Origin: a virus
Taxonomy: Duplodnaviria; Heunggongvirae; Uroviricota; Caudoviricetes
DNA: 6,610 nt
IMG/VR virus record: IMGVR_UViG_2706794671_000007
Strand: one strand, 5' to 3'
The notes under the pieces were generated by a model. It was not told the DNA's origin, made no database searches, and saw nothing but the letters and a program-made list of their open reading frames with translations. A program made the position numbers and the translations under genes. Of this stretch, positions 1 through 6,610 are shown piece after piece (position 1 is the stretch's first letter; each line of letters opens with the position of its first letter).

Positions 1-102
1 GTCTGGGGAATATCTCCCCGGCAGCCTTCAGGGAAAAATATCATCAGATGGCTGCTTAAAAAAAGAACAAATGGTAGTGTCCGCTATTGCCAGTACACCT
101 CA
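1..102. repeat. Left arm of a perfect 102-bp terminal inverted repeat (reverse complement of 6509..6610)
   Basis: Base-by-base comparison: the reverse complement of 6509..6610 equals 1..102 exactly; identity breaks at position 103 versus 6508. The repeat carries open coding frame (frame 2, no stops). Confidence 0.9.
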
Positions 103-301
103 TCCATCACCGAAAAAAATTGGCTTTTACACCATTGGCGATAAAAGCATTTACCTGTATGACCTACGCCGCATGGATGAAATCATGGAGGCTCTTGATA
201 ATCGTTCGTCGATGGATTGGTGTGTTGCTGTTCATGATATGAATGCAGGGTTTGATGAAAAGATTTTGTTCCCCTCATCAGTTGAAAGCACTGCGGGTTA
301 A
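2..301 (+). CDS. Hypothetical protein, probably 5'-partial (frame open from the window edge; first ATG at 71; stop TAA 299..301)
   Basis: Frame 2 has no stop from position 2 to 298. The ATG at 71 has no Shine-Dalgarno upstream, so the gene likely starts outside the window. The stop lies 10 nt upstream of the next gene. No family recognised. Confidence 0.4.
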   Translation, partial: SGEYLPGSLQGKISSDGCLKKEQMVVSAIASTPHPSPKKIGFYTIGDKSIYLYDLRRMDEIMEALDNRSSMDWCVAVHDMNAGFDEKILFPSSVESTAG

Positions 302-311
302 GGAGTAACAC

Positions 312-479
312 ATGACCACTATTACCAAAGAACGTATTGAATTGTTCATTAAAAACCCGCTTGAAAACGGGCTTACCCGTGGTGAACAAATGGAACTGGC
401 ACGGATTGCGCTGGCATCGCTGGAAGCAGAGCCGGTTGTGTTCTGGTTTGAAAAATATCAAGAAGGGGCTACGGCATGA
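312..479 (+). CDS. Small hypothetical protein, 55 aa ([55 protein letters not shown]); paralogue of the downstream 114-aa protein
   Basis: Not in the supplied ORF track (under 60 aa). ATG 312 is preceded by a consensus SD, AGGAG at 301..305, with 6-nt spacing. The stop TGA 477..479 overlaps the ATG of the next gene (ATGA). Shares the N-terminus MTT(I/F)T(K/R)E and the motif IAL-x-SL-x-AEP with the 476..820 product. Confidence 0.55.
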
Positions 480-820
480 CGACTTTTACCAGAGAGCAGT
501 TAATAGCTCACGCAGAGGAGACTATTGAAGCACAGAGACTGTGCATACCGGGCACAATCGACCATGACATCATCCGCACATATAAGATGGATATTGCTGT
601 TCTGGAAATCGCACTGGTATCGCTGGCAGCAGAGCCAGCCGGTAAATTGCATGAATACAAACCAGTGGGATATCAGCGTCTGGTCGATGAGTTAACCATG
701 CTGGTAAAGCAGTTAACCTGGCAACTGAGGAAAGCGAAGCCAGACTGCAAATTACCGGATAAGGCGATGAGTTATCTGGAGCGGAACGGACTGATAAGCG
801 TGGAGGATATTTTACGATGA
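476..820 (+). CDS. Hypothetical phage protein, 114 aa; tandem paralogue of the 55-aa ORF
   Basis: ORF-track ORF. ATG overlaps the upstream stop (ATGA at 476..479). The N-terminus [10 protein letters not shown] and motif [12 protein letters not shown] parallel the upstream protein. Its stop TGA 818..820 overlaps the ATG 817..819 of a following mini-ORF. Confidence 0.65.
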
Positions 821-900
821 CCTGGCCTGAAGCATTAACAACGGTAGGAATTGCGATGGCGGTGGCGCTGGTGGTGTATTCGATTTGCCGCTGGGGATAA
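817..900 (+). CDS. Candidate 27-aa hydrophobic (single transmembrane-like) peptide [27 protein letters not shown]
   Basis: ATG 817 overlaps the upstream stop (ATGA). GGAGGA at 802..807 sits 9 nt upstream. The hydrophobic core [13 protein letters not shown] is followed by basic/aromatic CRWG; stop TAA 898..900. Not in the ORF track (too short). Confidence 0.4.
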
Positions 901-907
901 AAACGGT

Positions 908-935
908 TTGCGGGAAAAGGAGAGTTAAGTAGAAT
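908..935 (+). promoter_or_regulatory. Candidate sigma70 promoter for the hok mRNA (-35 TTGCGG 908..913, 16-nt spacer, -10 TAGAAT 930..935)
   Basis: Hexamers read directly. The predicted transcription start near 942 coincides with the GGGTGCTTGAGG element (942..953) that is complementary to the mRNA 3' region (see findings). Confidence 0.4.
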
Positions 936-981
936 TGCAGCGGGTGCTTGAGGCTATCTGTCTCAGGCATGAACACCAAAA

Positions 982-1063
982 GGCAGATAGAGAAAAGCCC
1001 CAGTTAACATTACGCGTCCGGCAAGACGCTTAACATTAATCTGAGGCTCAATCTATGAACGGC
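982..1063 (-). ncRNA. Candidate Sok-like antisense RNA of the hok locus (approximate ends); candidate promoter on the minus strand -35 TTGCCT (1098..1093), 17-nt spacer, -10 TAACCT (1075..1070)
   Basis: In hok/sok loci the antisense RNA is transcribed opposite to the mok leader and start region. A minus-strand promoter-like pair of hexamers lies inside the mok-like N-terminal extension and points toward the mok SD/start at 1043..1057. The 3' end is not defined by a clean terminator, so coordinates are approximate. Confidence 0.3.
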
Positions 1064-1111
1064 AAATCTAGGTTAGCCTCTTACGTGCCGAAAGGCAAGG
1101 AGAAGCAGGCT

Positions 1112-1267
1112 ATGAAGCAGCAAAAGGCGATGTTAATCGCCCTGATCGTCATCTGTTTAACCGTCATAGTGACGGCACTGGTAACGAGGAAAGACCTCTG
1201 CGAGGTACGAATTCGAACCGGCCAGACGGAGGTCGCTGTCTTCACAGCTTACGAACCTGAGGAGTAA
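1112..1267 (+). CDS. hokD: Hok-family type I toxin, 51 aa, matching HokD/RelF (MKQQKAMLIALIVICLTVIVTALVTRKDLCEVRIRTGQTEVAVFTAYEPEE); an in-frame upstream ATG at 1055 gives a 70-aa mok-like overlapping frame
   Basis: Internal Met of ORF-track ORF 1055..1267. AAGGAG at 1097..1102 sits 9 nt upstream of ATG 1112. The peptide has the Hok/Gef architecture (N-terminal transmembrane helix, conserved C-terminal region) and matches HokD of the K-12 Qin prophage as I recall it. The ATG at 1055 has its own SD (GAGG 1043..1046). Confidence 0.85.
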   Translation: MKQQKAMLIALIVICLTVIVTALVTRKDLCEVRIRTGQTEVAVFTAYEPEE

Positions 1268-1335
1268 GAGACCAGGCGGGGGAGAAATCCCTCGCCACCT
1301 CTGATGGGTCAGGCATCCTCAATGCACCCACACTT

Positions 1336-1362
1336 AACCCGCTTCGGCGGGTTTTTGTTTTT
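1336..1362 (+). terminator. Rho-independent terminator ending the hok mRNA
   Basis: Stem CCCGC (1338..1342), loop TTCG, stem GCGGG (1347..1351), followed by TTTTTGTTTTT. Confidence 0.75.
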
Positions 1363-1484
1363 ATTTTCAACGCGTTTGAAGTTTTAGATGGTGCCGGAAT
1401 AGAATCAAAAATACTTAAGTAGCGCGCAGGGAGAAGAGGGATGGACCCCGAACAGGGGAGTGCTATTTATCTGGAAGGATTCTG

Positions 1485-1769
1485 TTGATGAAAATCGAAG
1501 AATTACGTGAAATTTTTAGTGAAGATGGCCTCTATACTGTGCGCGTTGAGAATGGCGCTATTGTCAGCCACTGCCTTCCAGACTACACAATTCTGATAAT
1601 TCAGCCGTCTTTGCCAGCAGGCACGGGCGGCGCTCTCACGCATTTAAATCTGATTGGTACCAGCATCCCCCATGCACTGAAGAACAGGCCGAATGGCTCA
1701 TTCAGTGTTACCGCAGGCGCGGATGCGAGGTTAAAAAAGCCCTTAGCCTCGACTACCGTCACTGGATAA
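1485..1769 (+). CDS. Hypothetical protein, 94 aa; occupies the position of rem between hokD and ydfU in the K-12 Qin prophage
   Basis: ORF-track ORF. GGAAGGA at 1472..1478 lies upstream of ATG 1485 (or 1488). The C-terminal half is low-complexity (PSLPAGTGGALT...SFSVTAGADA), so the true stop or frame may differ. Assignment by synteny only. Confidence 0.4.
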   Translation: MMKIEELREIFSEDGLYTVRVENGAIVSHCLPDYTILIIQPSLPAGTGGALTHLNLIGTSIPHALKNRPNGSFSVTAGADARLKKPLASTTVTG

Positions 1770-1844
1770 TCTCCGTCAGGCTCCCTTACTCCGAACGGCC
1801 AACGCGTCCGTCCCGCACATTCCAGCAACGGATCTGGAGGTAAT

Positions 1845-2903
1845 GTGCGGGTATTACTTCGACCTGTTCTGGTACCGGAACTCGGTCTGGTTATCGTTAA
1901 GCCAGGCCGTGAATCAATGTCAGCATTCCATAACGGCAGAATACTGGTGGAGCCGGAACCAAAAAGCATGCGTAATCTGCCGTCCGGGGTCGTTCCTGCC
2001 GCTCGCCAGCCGCTGGTGGAAGACAAAACATTGCTGCCGTTTTTCAGTAACGCACGGGTGATTCGTGCTGCTGGTGGTGCTGGTGCATTGTCTGACTGGC
2101 TGTTGCGCCATATTAAATCCTGCCAGTGGCCACACGGCGATTATCATCACAGCGAAACCGTCATTCACCGTTATGGTACCGGCGCAATGGTGTTGTGCTG
2201 GCACTGCGACAACCAGCTGCGTGACCAGACATCCGAATCACTCGAGCAACTTGCTCATCAAAACCTGTCAGCATGGATGATTGACGTCATCGGTCACGCA
2301 ATAAGCGGTACGCAGGAGCGTGAATTATCTCTGGCTGAATTATCCTGGTGGGCGGTCCGCAATCAGGTGGCGGACGCGCTACCGGAAGCGGTATTACGTC
2401 GTTCGCTGGGGTTGCGTGCGGAAAAAATTCGCTCTGTGTACAGTGAAAGCGACATCATACCGGGAGAGCAGACAGCCACCAGCATACTGAAGCAGCGCAC
2501 AAAAAATATTGCGTTACTGCCTCACGTCCACCAGCAACAGAACCCACCACAGGAAAAGACGGTGGTCAGCATTGCCGTTGATCCGGAGTCACCGGCTCAG
2601 TATCTCCAGCGCCAGAAATCACAACGGGAAGAGATGCCTGTATACACGCGCTGGGTAAAAACGCAGAAATGCATGACGTGTGGCAATCAGGCAGATGATC
2701 CGCATCACATCATTGGTCATGGACTGGGAGGGATGGGAACAAAGGCTGATGATTTGTTTGTTATTCCGTTATGCCGTAAATGCCGTAACGAACTACATGC
2801 CGGAGTAAAAGATTTTGAAGAGAAACACGGCAGTCAGCTGTTGTTGCTGATTCGTTTTTTAATGCACGCGAGAAATTCGGGTGTTCTGAAGTGGAAAGCA
2901 TAA
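1845..2903 (+). CDS. DUF968-like (YdfU-like) prophage protein, 352 aa, with a C-terminal HNH-like Cys/His motif; putative nuclease or zinc-binding protein
   Basis: ORF-track ORF with a GTG start at 1845 preceded by GGAGG (1836..1840); alternative in-frame ATGs at 1917 and 1967. C-terminal CMTCGN...HHIIGHGLGG...CRKCRNELH resembles an HNH/zinc-finger nuclease motif; a second cluster is HHSETVIHRYGTGAMVLCWHCDNQL. Stop TAA 2901..2903 directly abuts the rusA ATG. Confidence 0.7.
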   Translation: MRVLLRPVLVPELGLVIVKPGRESMSAFHNGRILVEPEPKSMRNLPSGVVPAARQPLVEDKTLLPFFSNARVIRAAGGAGALSDWLLRHIKSCQWPHGDYHHSETVIHRYGTGAMVLCWHCDNQLRDQTSESLEQLAHQNLSAWMIDVIGHAISGTQERELSLAELSWWAVRNQVADALPEAVLRRSLGLRAEKIRSVYSESDIIPGEQTATSILKQRTKNIALLPHVHQQQNPPQEKTVVSIAVDPESPAQYLQRQKSQREEMPVYTRWVKTQKCMTCGNQADDPHHIIGHGLGGMGTKADDLFVIPLCRKCRNELHAGVKDFEEKHGSQLLLLIRFLMHARNSGVLKWKA

Positions 2904-3284
2904 ATGACCGAGCGCATAGAATTTGTTTTACCTTACCCGCCGACGGTGAACACTTACTGGCGTCGTCGTGGCAGCACATATTTTGTATCAAAAGCCGGGG
3001 AGCGTTATCGCCGGGCAGTGGCGCTTATTGTTCGCCAGCAGCGGCTGAAATTAAGCCTGTCCGGAAGGTTGGCAATAAAAATTATTGCAGAACCACCGGA
3101 TAAGCGCCGCCGTGACCTGGACAATATTCTGAAAGCGCCGCTGGATGCGCTGACGCATGCGGGGTTGCTAATGGACGATGAGCAGTTTGATGAAATCAAT
3201 ATCGTTCGTGCTCAGCCAGTATCTGGTGGACGTCTGGGGGTGAAGATTTATCCCATAATGCTTGAAGGGCAGGTCAAAAAATGA
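2904..3284 (+). CDS. rusA: RusA-family Holliday junction resolvase (crossover junction endodeoxyribonuclease), 126 aa
   Basis: The translation carries the RusA catalytic-region signature PDKRRRDLDNILKAPLDALTHAGLLMDDEQF (acidic residues in RRRDLDN and MDDEQ), closely paralleling E. coli RusA. Size and nin-region position immediately upstream of Q fit. Confidence 0.9.
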   Translation: MTERIEFVLPYPPTVNTYWRRRGSTYFVSKAGERYRRAVALIVRQQRLKLSLSGRLAIKIIAEPPDKRRRDLDNILKAPLDALTHAGLLMDDEQFDEINIVRAQPVSGGRLGVKIYPIMLEGQVKK

Positions 3285-4102
3285 AACTGGAAGATTTACC
3301 GAAATACTACTCCCCAAAATCCCCCGGCCTGACTGATGCATCGGCCTCAACGTCGAAAGATGCGCTGAGTATCACTGATGTGATGGCCGCGCAGGGCATG
3401 ACACAGAATCGGGCTGAGATGGGGGTTTCTGCGTTCCTTGGGAAAATGGGCATTAGTATGAATGACAGAGAGCGGGCAACAGAATTGCTGACAGAATATG
3501 CACTCAGTCGGTGTGATCGCGTGGCGGCGTTAAGAAAACTCCCGGCAGAAATAAAACCGGCAGTGATGCGTATTATGGCTTCGTATGCGTTTGAAGATTA
3601 TGCCCGTAGCGCGGCGAGCAAAAAACAGTGCCCCTGCTGTCACGGAAAAAAATTTATTGAAAGCGAGGTTTTTACAAACAAGATCCAGTATCCGGATGGT
3701 AAGCCGCCGGTATGGGCAAAGTGTACGAAAGGTGTGTATCCGTCTTACTGGGAAGAATGGAAAAAAGTCAGGGAGGTGGTAAAAGTTGCCTGTCCGGAGT
3801 GTGGCGGAAAGGGTGAGGTTTCCACCGCCTGTAAGGATTGCCGTGGGCGTGGTGTCGCCATTCATCGTGAAGAGTCGGTAAAACGTGGTATGCCTGTTAT
3901 CAGAGACTGCCAGCGTTGTGGTGGTCGTGGCTATGAAAGACTACCATCAACGGAGGCATTTAATGCTATATGCGAGGTGACAAACCAGATAACACGCGCG
4001 TCATGGGAAAAAACAGTTAAGAAATTTTATGATGCGCTGGTGACCCGGTTTGATATTGAAGAAGCATGGGCTGAGCGGCAGTTAAAAAAGGTAACTAGGT
4101 AA
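3281..4102 (+). CDS. Late-gene antitermination protein Q, 273 aa, Cys-rich zinc-binding type
   Basis: ATG overlaps the rusA stop (ATGA 3281..3284). Multiple CxxC pairs (CPCC, CPEC, CKDC, CQRC). The position directly upstream of a PR'-like promoter plus short-leader terminator is the canonical Q / qut / tR' arrangement. Confidence 0.75.
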   Translation: MKLEDLPKYYSPKSPGLTDASASTSKDALSITDVMAAQGMTQNRAEMGVSAFLGKMGISMNDRERATELLTEYALSRCDRVAALRKLPAEIKPAVMRIMASYAFEDYARSAASKKQCPCCHGKKFIESEVFTNKIQYPDGKPPVWAKCTKGVYPSYWEEWKKVREVVKVACPECGGKGEVSTACKDCRGRGVAIHREESVKRGMPVIRDCQRCGGRGYERLPSTEAFNAICEVTNQITRASWEKTVKKFYDALVTRFDIEEAWAERQLKKVTR

Positions 4103-4107
4103 CAAGG

Positions 4108-4135
4108 TTGATTTTTCCGGAATCTGTGGTAAATT
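4108..4135 (+). promoter_or_regulatory. PR'-like late promoter and qut region (-35 TTGATT 4108..4113; extended -10 TGgTAAATT, hexamer 4130..4135)
   Basis: Lies 6 nt after the Q stop. The -10 TAAATT and the downstream AACGATGGG (4142..4150) resemble the lambda PR' / 6S RNA start region as I recall it. Confidence 0.5.
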
Positions 4136-4182
4136 CGTCATAACGATGGGCGTTTTATGCCTGACGTTAGAAGAGTTTCTAC

Positions 4183-4208
4183 AACCCGCCGCCGAGCGGG
4201 TTTTTTAT
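4183..4208 (+). terminator. tR'-like rho-independent terminator downstream of the late promoter (target of Q antitermination)
   Basis: Stem CCCGC (4185..4189), loop CGCCGA, stem GCGGG (4196..4200), then TTTTTTAT. Lies about 60 nt downstream of the predicted PR' start. Confidence 0.6.
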
Positions 4209-4326
4209 GACTGAAATCGCGTCAGTACAGTAAACGCGCTGGTGGCGGTGAATACCTGTCTTTCAGCTTGCTGGCTTTTTCGACAAGAGTTATTGGTGTG
4301 TCACGTTAACCGGAAAAGGAAAAGAC

Positions 4327-4524
4327 ATGCTAAAACAGCAGGATATGACAGAAACCGCCAGAGTGGTGTTTAATGAATTAAGCGTTACCGAACCGGCGAC
4401 AGTCGGGGAGATAGCGCAGAATACTTACCTTTCACGCGAACGCTGCCAGTTAATACTGACCCAGCTGGTTATGGCGGGTCTGGCAGACTATCAGTTCGGT
4501 TGTTACAGACGCCTTCCGCAGTGA
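4327..4524 (+). CDS. Small putative winged-helix / HTH DNA-binding protein, 65 aa
   Basis: ORF-track ORF. SD AAGGA at 4316..4320 with 6-nt spacing. The segment TVGEIAQNTYLSRERCQLILTQLVMAGL looks like a helix-turn-helix recognition region (by eye). Followed by its own terminator. Confidence 0.55.
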   Translation: MLKQQDMTETARVVFNELSVTEPATVGEIAQNTYLSRERCQLILTQLVMAGLADYQFGCYRRLPQ

Positions 4525-4538
4525 AGGCTTTTTTATTT
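4511..4538 (+). terminator. Rho-independent terminator overlapping the stop codon of the 65-aa gene
   Basis: Stem GCCTTC (4511..4516), loop CGCAGT, stem GAAGGC (4523..4528), followed by TTTTTTATTT. Confidence 0.65.
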
Positions 4539-4674
4539 GTGGTAAATGGGCGGCTGGTGGGTGTTAGGGGCACCCACCAGCCATCTGCTCATGCGTTGGG
4601 TTCACAAGCAAACCTCAGGCCCACTGCTTTGCGCAAAAGCAGAATGAGCCTATCAGAGACAGGCTTAATGATCC

Positions 4675-5733
4675 ATGCTTAATACTGTAAAAATATCCAG
4701 TTGTGAGTTAATCAACGCCGACTGCCTGGAATTTATCCGGTCGTTACCCGAAAATTCTGTTGACCTGATAGTCACGGACCCGCCGTACTTTAAAGTGAAG
4801 CCTGAGGGCTGGGATAACCAGTGGAAGGGCGACGATGATTACCTGAAGTGGCTGGACCAGTGTCTGGCGCAGTTCTGGCGGGTGCTGAAACCTGCCGGAA
4901 GTCTTTACCTGTTCTGTGGTCATCGCCTGGCATCTGATATCGAAATCATGATGCGTGAACGCTTCAGTGTGCTGAACCATATTATCTGGGCGAAGCCGTC
5001 CGGACGCTGGAACGGATGCAACAAGGAAAGCCTGCGGGCGTATTTCCCCGCCACAGAGCGCATTCTGTTCGCGGAACATTATCAGGGGCCGTATCGTCCG
5101 AAAGATGCCGGGTATGCGGCGAAGGGCAGTGCACTGAAACAGCATGTGATGGCCCCGCTGATTTCTTACTTTCGTGATGCGCGAGCTGCCCTGGGGATAA
5201 CGGCAAAACAGATTGCAGATGCCACAGGAAAGAAAAACATGGTGTCGCACTGGTTCAGTGCCGGTCAGTGGCAGTTGCCGAATGAAAGCGATTATCTGAA
5301 ATTACAGGCGCTGTTTGCCCGGGTGGCAGAAGAGAAGCATCGGCGTGGTGAACTGGAAAAGCTCCACCACCAGCTGGTGGATACGTATACCTCACTGAAC
5401 CGGCAGTATGCGGAGCTGCTGAGTGAATATAAACATCTGCGGCGGTATTTTGGCGTGACGGTGCAGGTGCCGTATACCGATGTGTGGACGCATAAACCGG
5501 TGCAGTTCTATCCCGGGAAACATCCGTGCGAAAAACCGGCAGAAATGCTGCAGCAGATAATCAGCGCTAGCAGTCGTCCGGGTGACCTGATTGCAGATTT
5601 TTTCATGGGGTTGGGTTCGACAGTGAAAGCGGCACTGGCGCTCGGGCGTCGTGCAATTGGCGTTGAGCTGGAGACTGAACGTTTTGAGCAGACGGTTCGG
5701 GAAGTACAGGATTTAGTCAGCCAGAACGGATGA
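4675..5733 (+). CDS. Phage-encoded DNA N6-adenine methyltransferase, beta class (motif IV DPPY N-terminal, motif I FxGxG C-terminal), 352 aa; no cognate restriction enzyme visible (orphan)
   Basis: LIVTDPPYF at residues about 31..39 (catalytic motif IV typical of amino-methyltransferases) and DFFMGLGST near residue 300 (AdoMet-binding motif I). The permuted order IV then I defines the beta group. A central insert of about 250 aa is a plausible target-recognition domain. Confidence 0.85.
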   Translation: MLNTVKISSCELINADCLEFIRSLPENSVDLIVTDPPYFKVKPEGWDNQWKGDDDYLKWLDQCLAQFWRVLKPAGSLYLFCGHRLASDIEIMMRERFSVLNHIIWAKPSGRWNGCNKESLRAYFPATERILFAEHYQGPYRPKDAGYAAKGSALKQHVMAPLISYFRDARAALGITAKQIADATGKKNMVSHWFSAGQWQLPNESDYLKLQALFARVAEEKHRRGELEKLHHQLVDTYTSLNRQYAELLSEYKHLRRYFGVTVQVPYTDVWTHKPVQFYPGKHPCEKPAEMLQQIISASSRPGDLIADFFMGLGSTVKAALALGRRAIGVELETERFEQTVREVQDLVSQNG

Positions 5734-5773
5734 TATTGAAGAATTAATTACGCGTCGTTATTATGCGGCTCCC

Positions 5774-5849
5774 GGCCCTTTAGCTCAGTGGTGAGAGCGA
5801 GCGACTCATAATCGCCAGGTCGCTGGTTCAAATCCAGCAAGGGCCACCA
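5774..5849 (+). tRNA. tRNA with anticodon CAT, most likely tRNA-Ile2 (lysidine type, ileX/ileZ-like) rather than tRNA-Met; 76 nt including CCA
   Basis: Cloverleaf folded by hand: acceptor GGCCCTT / AAGGGCC, D-arm GCTC-AGTGGTGA-GAGC, anticodon arm AGCGA-CTCATAA-TCGCC (CAT at positions 34..36), T-arm GCTGG-TTCAAAT-CCAGC, discriminator A plus CCA. Closely resembles E. coli ileX as I recall it. Confidence 0.85.
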
Positions 5850-5890
5850 TCACATACCGCCATTAGCTCATCAGGAAAGAGCGCCAGCCT

Positions 5891-6176
5891 NNNNNNNNNN
5901 NNNNNNNNNNNNNNNNNNNNNNNNNNNNNNNNNNNNNNNNNNNNNNNNNNNNNNNNNNNNNNNNNNNNNNNNNNNNNNNNNNNNNNNNNNNNNNNNNNNN
6001 NNNNNNNNNNNNNNNNNNNNNNNNNNNNNNNNNNNNNNNNNNNNNNNNNNNNNNNNNNNNNNNNNNNNNNNNNNNNNNNNNNNNNNNNNNNNNNNNNNNN
6101 NNNNNNNNNNNNNNNNNNNNNNNNNNNNNNNNNNNNNNNNNNNNNNNNNNNNNNNNNNNNNNNNNNNNNNNNNNNN
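5891..6176. other. Scaffold gap: 286 consecutive N
   Basis: Unbroken run of n characters. Any ORF crossing it is an artefact and the true content and length are unknown. Confidence 0.99.
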
Positions 6177-6300
6177 GAATCCCCCTGTGCGGAGGGGCAA
6201 TCAGCGAGTAGGTATATGGGATAATCGCGGATTCAGGTGCTGGTACTGAATTCACCGGGAGGCACCCGGCATCATGCAATGGCACATAGCGCCACTCTCC

Positions 6301-6324
6301 AGCCCTCTCCGGAGGGGCTTTTCT
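6301..6324 (+). terminator. Candidate rho-independent terminator
   Basis: Stem CCCTC (6303..6307), loop TCCG, stem GAGGG (6312..6316), followed by GCTTTTCT. Confidence 0.45.
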
Positions 6325-6508
6325 GTGCCGGATACATCACAGTTTCTGGAACCTTAGGTACTACAGTATCAGTCAGGGTGCTATATTTTCAGATGTGATG
6401 AAAGCCTGTCAGCAGGCAGGGCGTATCGGAAATGACCCAGTAGAGAAAACGTTGACTCAGATACCGGTGCTGAGTTACCGGGAAACCGGCATCACATGAC
6501 CGCTATCC

Positions 6509-6610
6509 TGAGGTGTACTGGCAATAGCGGACACTACCATTTGTTCTTTTTTTAAGCAGCCATCTGATGATATTTTTCCCTGAAGGCTGCCGGGGAGATA
6601 TTCCCCAGAC
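6509..6610. repeat. Right arm of the perfect 102-bp terminal inverted repeat (reverse complement of 1..102)
   Basis: See feature 1..102. Confidence 0.9.

Follow-up and report, generated by a model that had tools for sequence, protein, structure and literature searches.

A lambdoid prophage remnant bounded by inward-facing right ends of IS600 in a scaffold matching Shigella sonnei chromosomes

Gene content of the prophage remnant

The window, that is, the whole 6,610-nt stretch of DNA analyzed here, holds a lambdoid prophage remnant (103-6508, plus strand), which was recognized as a late-regulatory module from Pfam and Rfam matches and from its colinearity with the intact E. coli prophages L002, L003 and L004. 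Two small ORFs at the start of the remnant precede hok/sok (942-1267, Rfam sok), which is followed by an ORF (1485-1769), the Pfam-assigned genes for DUF968/HNH (1845-2903), RusA (2904-3284) and antiterminator Q (3281-4102), a small ORF (4327-4524) and an N6/N4 DNA methylase gene (4675-5733, also by Pfam). Downstream lie a tRNA gene with a CAT anticodon (5774-5849, plus strand), found by ARAGORN in both the window and L005 and annotated in RefSeq as tRNA-Ile, and the first 34 nt of a tRNA-Arg(TCG) gene (plus strand, ARAGORN), which ends at 5890 where a gap cuts off the rest. At its right end the remnant has 332 bp of non-coding DNA, a stretch normally followed by the SASA esterase and lysis genes. 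Rfam matches in the window comprised sok, tRNA and STnc100. The gene order is the same as that of the Stx-type lambdoid late-regulatory module (Q, methylase, ileZ-argN-argO-like tRNAs, esterase and lysis genes), and near-identical DNA occurs in many E. coli prophages. The remnant departs from that module in the interval that separates the tRNAs from the SASA esterase gene, which is occupied by an IS600 and has no toxin genes, and compared with intact prophages its left side is truncated and rearranged.

The gap is a single run of 286 N (5891-6176), the only one in the window, in keeping with the statement of an earlier sequence-only reading that the DNA is a scaffold. The real gap sequence is 245 bp long and consists of the remainder of tRNA-Arg(TCG), tRNA-Arg(TCT) and a spacer, which brings the tRNA count of the remnant to three; masked sequence such as toxin genes was therefore rejected as the content of the N run. 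In E. coli prophages the gap flanks are separated by 243-245 bp, and in 10 of 10 S. sonnei loci by 245 bp (244 bp in L008); the order across the gap is the native prophage order. Because the contig breaks at the tRNA-Arg genes, this region must have further copies in the genome, and the join to the 434-bp right piece was thus made from read pairs, not from overlapping sequence.

IS600 at both ends of the window

A repeat search of the window returned positions 1-102 and 6509-6610 as two arms of 102 nt with 100% complementarity and a spacing of 6406 nt, and their exact reverse-complementarity was re-checked by script. The complementarity is broken at the next base, position 103 being T and the complement of 6508 being G. 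These results reproduce both the perfect inverted repeat and the sharp end of identity at 103/6508 that had been reported from the letters alone. A perfect 102-nt match in 6.6 kb cannot have originated by chance.

The arms are not phage DNA; they come from IS600, an IS3-family element of 1264 bp, and comprise the final 102 bp at its right end. From the left arm (1-102, plus strand) the element runs leftward off the scaffold, and from the right arm (6509-6610, minus strand), which begins with TGAGGTGTACTG at 6509, it runs rightward off the scaffold. The arm is 100% identical to copies annotated as 'IS3-like element IS600 family transposase' (3178 records) and maps to positions 2501-2602 of L001; there the IS600 CDS stops at 2559, and 2602 is the last position of the IS. 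Bases 3-59 translate in frame 3 to LGNISPAAFREKYHQMAA followed by a stop, which are the last 18 codons and the stop of the IS600 transposase orfB, and the right inverted repeat (IRR) lies 3' of this stop and ends with ...CAGTACACCTCA (...CACCTCA) at 102. The arm had been called coding-like because frame 2 is open; that frame is indeed open and an ORF does start inside the arm, but the genuine coding frame is frame 3, which encodes an IS3-type transposase C-terminus. IS600 has 5'-TG...CA-3' tips and imperfect terminal inverted repeats, the left one (IRL) reading TGAGGTAGCCTGAG... and the IRR, as its reverse complement, TGAGGTGTACTGGC.... Since the left and right ends of the element have only short runs in common (TGAGGT and CGGACACT), both window ends are unambiguously IS600 right ends. 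An assembler k-mer switch inside a single IS600 was rejected, because the runs common to its two ends measure 6-8 nt.

Further comparison of the full copies at the junctions with the reference IS600 (the E2865 copy) gave 1260-1263 matching positions out of 1264. At both IS600 positions the 385-aa product contains HTH and rve domains (PF01527, PF13276, PF00665 and PF13683); the RefSeq annotation of the reference copy provides the programmed orfA/orfB frameshift, and that copy is flanked by a 3-bp target duplication (CGC/CGC). In sequence identity, the ~1.26-kb structure, a frameshifted HTH and DDE (rve) transposase and the 3-bp duplication, the element conforms to IS600 of the IS3 family as expanded in Shigella and itself shows no differences from it. 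Compared with a full IS600, the window holds 102 bp per copy, as the scaffold ends inside the repeat.

The first ORF of the window (71-301, plus strand) encodes a chimeric IS600-phage product of 76 aa. Its codons 1-11 are read from the IRR, and its residues 12-76 are identical (65/65, BLASTP) to residues 23-87 of an 87-aa phage protein (L002:3936-4199), whose C-terminal 65 residues are thus kept. No Pfam family was matched by this ORF, which in databases is named as an S. sonnei hypothetical or 'prophage protein' (Q3Z0Y9_SHISS). The care advised for the first ORF was justified by this composition, and ORFs starting in such IS ends are fusion artefacts made by insertion.

The right copy is a simple IS600 insertion with a 3-bp TCC target duplication. 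At this insertion, complete genomes read ...CGCTATCC-IS600-TCCTTCCAGG, the IS being flanked by TCC to left and right, and L006 and L011 still have the empty site, ...CGCTATCC-TTCCAGG; these sequences place the inner copy of the duplication at 6506-6508 (plus strand). The left copy interrupts an 87-aa phage gene, the native uninterrupted site of which (...GATCGCTG-TCC-ATCACCG) is present in L002 and L015, and a single copy of its 3-bp target duplication, TCC, lies at 103-105 (plus strand). The other half of the interrupted gene, also TCC-ended, is displaced and inverted in S. sonnei; TCC is kept on both gene halves, which are no longer adjacent. The outer flanks of the IS600 pair read ...AATTTT on the left and TCCTTC... 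on the right, that is, TTT versus TCC, indicating that no target duplication surrounds the unit as a whole. Moreover, the duplication belonging to the right copy and its empty site in L006 and L011 indicate that the two copies arrived separately.

The left copy probably inserted at TCC in the small phage gene and subsequently lost its duplication via an older IS-associated inversion/deletion that rearranged its left flank. The displaced gene half joins the integrase-gene sequence TGTGGTGTCAT exactly after TCC with no IS between them, and 8 of 11 bases agree between this sequence and the IS600 right tip, TGAGGTGTACT. The new junction of the freed left IS end lies within a DUF977 gene in inverted orientation, and the inverted DUF977 block adjoins ompW wherever it is retained (8 of 10 S. 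sonnei loci). We consider it rather unlikely that this rearrangement records an unusual transposase-catalyzed inversion-deletion; if true, it could exemplify, in nature, the use of a surrogate end and strand-switching joints by an IS3-family transposase. Replicative inversion, Tn10-style inside-end events and figure-eight chemistry were tried as single-step models of the left rearrangement, and each was rejected as needing an extra step for the IS-less joint between TCC and the integrase sequence. In L013 the left flank beyond the IS is different, which indicates that IS600-mediated rearrangement does occur at the locus and bears out the earlier distrust of what lies past the window ends.

Finished chromosomes and the interpretation of the repeat

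The non-N bases of the window are 100% identical to complete S. sonnei chromosomes, every one of them being matched in L005, L007, L009, L010 and L012. In finished chromosomes, a full plus-strand IS600 on the left and a full minus-strand IS600 on the right enclose ~6365 bp of lambdoid remnant on a single molecule. Both junctions were found on one chromosome in at least eight cases: in L005, L007, L008, L010 and L013 the right junction is followed by a full 1264-bp minus-strand IS600, and in L009, L012 and L014 small indels inside IS600 leave it within 1-4 bp of 1264 bp. Of the 1264 positions, 0-2 distinguish the left from the right copy, and the one closest to the inner tips lies 285 nt into IS600; the perfect repeat therefore continues past the window ends. 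These data indicate that the repeat is real and about 1264 bp long. Sequence is exchanged among IS600 copies, as shown by the SNP patterns of the two copies, which are identical in L005 and hybrid in L012 and L013. In addition, the junction-spanning 76-aa ORF was found on 832 contigs named Shigella sonnei, with 83 index blocks holding contigs >1 Mb. The left and right junctions were both absent from 5426 complete RefSeq E. coli genomes, and the left junction had 0 matches in GTDB species-representative genomes. The left junction was likewise absent from 50,697 phage records and 72,556 plasmid records, where the phage part or the IS part was matched separately and the two were never joined.

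Based on these results, the window is almost certainly a short-read scaffold from Shigella sonnei that carries 6.4 kb of a defective lambdoid prophage, a segment flanked by two full IS600 copies. The copies would be opposite in orientation with their IRRs facing inward, and the presentation of the same end to the segment by both copies produces the perfect terminal inverted repeat of the scaffold. Judging from the sequence-identical finished genomes, the source isolate probably has both full copies. IS600 copies around an S. sonnei prophage remnant are known biology and ordinary for an IS-rich bacterium: of the 331 IS elements in strain 53G, 52 are IS600, for which the population median is 39 (PMC7373316, S1 Table), and the fragmentation and shuffling of S. 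sonnei prophages and genes by roughly 330 IS insertions are already well described (PMC7373316). The window adds one more such case and opens no new question. For quality control, when a short scaffold from an IS-rich genome ends in a perfect inverted repeat, the usual meaning is that two copies of one IS bracket the contig.

The sequence-only reading had offered, as its biological option, a real inverted duplication bounding an invertible or recombining prophage segment. An inverted repeat truly bounds the prophage segment, but it consists of two separate 1264-bp IS600 copies rather than a 102-bp inverted duplication of phage DNA. Inversion of the 6.4-kb module, either by homologous recombination between the 1264-bp copies or by a dedicated site-specific system, is very improbable, even though two almost identical 1.26-kb inverted repeats separated by 6.4 kb can serve as a RecA substrate and both the exchange shown by the IS600 SNP patterns and the rearranged left flank of L013 would fit it. 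The 25 long contigs read, which represent 10 distinct arrangements, all show the segment in one orientation with respect to its flanks and thus provide no flipped example. Pfam revealed no resolvase/invertase domain among the segment ORFs, and the repeats are IS ends, not the short recombinase sites of a Hin/Gin/Cin-type segment. A Q-methylase-tRNA module made recombinationally switchable by the inverted IS600 pair would be a weaker alternative to the transposase-catalyzed event considered for the left copy, and no evidence was found for transposition or inversion of the IS600-bounded unit.

The other option raised earlier was an assembly artefact in which both contig ends terminate in the same repeated phage segment entered from opposite directions. 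Indeed, both ends stop inside one repeated element with opposite entry and 102 bp is an assembly boundary, but the element is an insertion sequence. A purely artefactual adjacency, with the ends derived from different loci or from a palindromic chimera so that no molecule holds both copies, has a still slighter chance of being correct. The N gap, its estimated size of 286 against the real 245, and the break in tRNA genes common to many prophages in thousands of E. coli genomes would be expected of a faulty join. However, the junctions recur at the expected spacing in the independent finished assemblies described above, five of which are identical to the window outside the gap, and order and orientation across the gap agree with intact E. 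coli prophages. An artefact is already contradicted at the species level.

Least probable of all is a composite transposon in which the two IS600 and the 6.4-kb Q-methylase-tRNA module move as a single unit, since, although two intact inverted copies with 385-aa HTH/rve transposases bracket the segment, the outer flanks and the separate arrival of the copies oppose it, the searches of complete E. coli genomes (both junctions) and of phages and plasmids (left junction) gave no second location or replicon, and, with respect to the SASA and holin genes downstream, the segment is still in native prophage order.

Length of the terminal arms

Under the preferred reading of two full IS600 copies in S. 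sonnei, the ~40-50 near-identical copies in the genome would cause an assembler to stall in either flanking copy, and assembly would have stopped at equal depth, 102 bp into IS600, at both ends. The inner edge of the terminal repeat would then be the biological IS tip and the outer edge a mere scaffold end. An IS600 polymorphism 102 bp from the tip was rejected as the cause of this length, because 15 IS600 copies are invariant at that point, and the arm length is therefore attributed to the assembler, probably through repeat collapse. A length of 102 is not among the common default k-mer sizes; as a guess, scaffolding after a de Bruijn assembly with k = 103 (overlap k-1) could, for example, have produced it. 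The window resembles other IS-bounded contigs produced by repeat collapse in IS-rich short-read assemblies, both ends of which likewise stop equally deep in a multicopy element. It differs from the usual ones in that both neighbours show the IRR inward rather than unrelated IS ends. In public assemblies, the junction ORF is mostly on contigs of 2-10 kb (599 of 795 index blocks).

Identity of the terminal inverted repeat

The sequence-only reading had described a perfect 102-bp inverted repeat stopping sharply at 103/6508, and an exact reverse-complement check confirmed this as written: window bases 1-102 are exactly reverse-complementary to 6509-6610, and pairing breaks right after these arms, base 103 being T and the complement of base 6508 being G. 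A repeat search of the window found no comparable second repeat, the runner-up inverted pair being 26 nt at 73%. The 102-base arm had full-length matches, mostly 100% identical, in 2887 of 5426 complete E. coli genomes, at a median of 2 and a maximum of 43 places per genome on chromosomes and plasmids, and all these matches were annotated as 'IS3-like element IS600 family transposase'. The reference IS600 of E. coli E2865 (L001) is 1264 bp long, runs from TGAGGTAGCC... to ...CAGTACACCTCA and carries a 3-bp CGC duplication on both sides; the arm is its final 102 bp. Its tip lies 43 bp past the end of the transposase CDS, so that window bases 3-59 encode the OrfB C-terminus, and their translation, LGNISPAAFREKYHQMAA*, is typical of IS3-family OrfB proteins. 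Since the two ends of IS600 have only TGAGGT and CGGACACT in common, both window ends can be assigned with certainty to the right end (IRR), with the tips towards the 6.4-kb interior. The arms are thus IS600 and not phage DNA. At 103/6508, where identity breaks off, lies the biological tip of IS600, and the outer limit of the arms (1/6610) simply marks where the scaffold ends.

IS600 junctions in finished genomes

Neither IS/phage junction was present in the 5426 complete E. coli genomes, and the left junction was not found in phage or plasmid records or among GTDB species representatives. Because the ORF at 71-301 crosses the left junction, its exact 76-aa product served as a junction-specific probe. 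It was on record for 832 contigs carrying Shigella sonnei names, and UniProt Q3Z0Y9_SHISS, a 'prophage protein', is among these records; in the 795 index blocks holding it, the longest contig exceeded 1 Mb in 83 and was only 2-10 kb in 599. The window's organism is Shigella sonnei.

Ten long S. sonnei contigs (L005-L014) were fetched, and both junctions lay on one chromosome in L005, L007, L008, L009, L010, L012, L013 and L014. In these eight loci, IS600 directly adjoins the interior, on the plus strand at the left and on the minus strand at the right; window 103 corresponds to locus position 10033 and window 6508 to 16397, giving an interior of 6365 bp. The flanking IS600 measures 1264 bp exactly in most of them and comes within 1-4 bp of this in L009, L012 and L014, and all non-N window bases, arms included, are identical to L005, L007, L009, L010 and L012. 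Therefore, the inverted repeat is real and present on single molecules, and its true length is the whole IS600. Between the left and right copies, 0-2 of the 1264 positions vary, and the difference closest to the inner tips lies 285 nt in. When positions 126, 551 and 980 were compared in L005-L013, the copies differed at 126 and 980 in most strains, were identical in L005 and had mixed (hybrid) SNP patterns in L012 and L013, suggesting gene conversion among copies or polishing artefacts in those assemblies.

Two insertions and a left-hand rearrangement

The right site in finished genomes reads ...CGCTATCC|IS600|TCCTTCCAGG..., and two chromosomes, L006 and L011, carry the empty site ...CGCTATCC-TTCCAGG... 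with a single TCC (around 16640-16660). The filled and empty sites together show that the right copy is a simple insertion with a 3-bp TCC duplication, as expected for IS600, and polymorphic among strains. L006 and L011 have the left junction and lack the right IS600; their interior is ~250 bp larger, including a Rem-family ORF (PF27490; around 11200-11750), and another inverted IS600 lies ~3.5 kb further right, at 20108.

The left copy was inserted at the TCC of the native site ...GATCGCTG-TCC-ATCACCG..., inside an 87-aa phage gene, resulting in the chimeric ORF 71-301, which begins with 11 codons from the IS and continues with the gene's last 65 residues. TCC at both insertions may reflect either coincidence (1 in 64) or target preference. 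The left copy is now without a target duplication: its left end abuts ...CCCTTTAATTTT, 32 nt inside an inverted DUF977 gene, and no longer adjoins the other gene half. This displaced half (MATLTKKERAWLNELQEVLDRCP, with ...GCTGTCC as its end) is found ~1.8 kb farther to the left in minus-strand orientation, where its TCC is directly followed by the 3' part of a phage integrase gene beside ompW (coordinates for the left-hand rearrangement: L009 6963-7030, minus strand, and L005 8757-8772, relating to window 103-105). The sequence at the integrase breakpoint, TGTGGTGTCAT, agrees with the IS600 IRR tip in 8 of 11 bases. Compared with an intact relative, E. coli M16807 (L015), a ~1-kb block (DUF977, a 70-aa ORF, DUF4014 and the N-terminal gene half) is inverted in place and now also carries IS1, and the region from the integrase N-terminus through DUF1627 is lost. 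TCC is kept on both gene halves, so the original insertion reads as canonical and the rearrangement as later; no single standard transposition pathway yielding it could be derived. In L013, entirely different DNA lies left of the left IS600 (8757-8768, flank TAAGCTGATTAG, other genes upstream; one finished chromosome), which indicates a larger rearrangement with a breakpoint in that copy.

Flipping of the 6.4-kb segment by homologous recombination between the two copies is mechanistically possible. The copies here appear to exchange sequence (identical in L005, hybrid in L012 and L013), and beyond the IS the left flank of L013 is a different one. However, the segment was in no case flipped among the 25 long contigs read, and no invertase gene was found in it. 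A composite transposon, moving IS600-segment-IS600 as one unit, is not supported. Its outer flanks (TTT on one side, TCC on the other) form no duplication, the right copy sits in a duplication of its own and has an empty-site allele, and searches for the unit at other places, by either junction in complete E. coli and by the left one in phage and plasmid records, found none. A pure assembly artefact, in which the two copies never share one molecule around this segment, is contradicted by the finished S. sonnei genomes and excluded for the species.

Of the two possibilities raised from the sequence alone, the artefact was right in that a multicopy element is entered from both sides at the scaffold ends, and the real inverted duplication in that single chromosomes carry a true pair of inverted copies; the element itself, a phage segment in the artefact reading, is IS600. 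S. sonnei 53G has 52 IS600 copies among 331 IS elements, and the population median is 39 IS600 copies (PMC7373316, S1 Table). Because IS600 is so highly multicopy, a short-read assembler is unable to cross either copy and would halt, on either side of the interior, at one common node of the graph; the value of 102 would be consistent with a k-1 overlap if k was 103. The IS600-bounded arrangement is ordinary and already known, as public finished genomes have carried it from the Ss046 reference onwards, and the finding has low value beyond annotation hygiene.

The prophage interior and the scaffold gap

Window 103-6508 is the late-regulatory part of a lambdoid prophage, a module that hundreds of E. 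coli prophages share at 94-97% identity. Two small ORFs are followed by a complete type I hok/sok toxin-antitoxin locus at 942-1267 (sok RNA, 942-1117, Rfam 112 bits; Hok, ORF 1055-1267, Hok/Gef Pfam E = 3e-23), an ORF (1485-1769), a DUF968/HNH protein (1845-2903), RusA (2904-3284), antiterminator Q (3281-4102), a 65-aa ORF (4327-4524), an N6/N4 DNA methylase (4675-5733), a tRNA with a CAT anticodon (5774-5849; tRNA-Ile in RefSeq annotation) and the start of a tRNA-Arg running up to the gap at 5891. Residues 171-218 of Q gave a sub-threshold match to the DnaJ CXXCXGXG zinc finger (30.1 bits against a cutoff of 32.7). E. coli prophage alignments to the left part all start at base 103; the 332 bp 3' of the gap (6177-6508) align, again in these prophages, to the DNA immediately following the tRNA cluster, and those alignments stop at 6509-6510.

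The single N run covers 286 of the 6610 bases (5891-6176). In each of the ten S. sonnei loci the distance between its two flanks is 245 bp (244 in L008), and E. coli prophages, where the flanks keep this order and orientation, give 243-245 bp; the missing sequence consists of the remainder of tRNA-Arg(TCG), then tRNA-Arg(TCT) and a spacer. Thus, the 286 N are a read-pair size estimate, 41 bp over the true length, and not masked content, and the scaffold join is consistent with finished genomes. The remnant shares with Stx-type phages the tRNA trio (a CAT-anticodon tRNA annotated as Ile, Arg-TCG and Arg-TCT) downstream of Q and methylase but lacks the toxin genes that follow it there; the next gene in finished genomes is a SASA esterase, with IS600 inserted between. 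A match to the Rfam sRNA family STnc100 at 6148-6330 (69.8 bits, above the gathering score) starts within the N gap and spans the non-coding DNA that separates the tRNA cluster from the right IS600.
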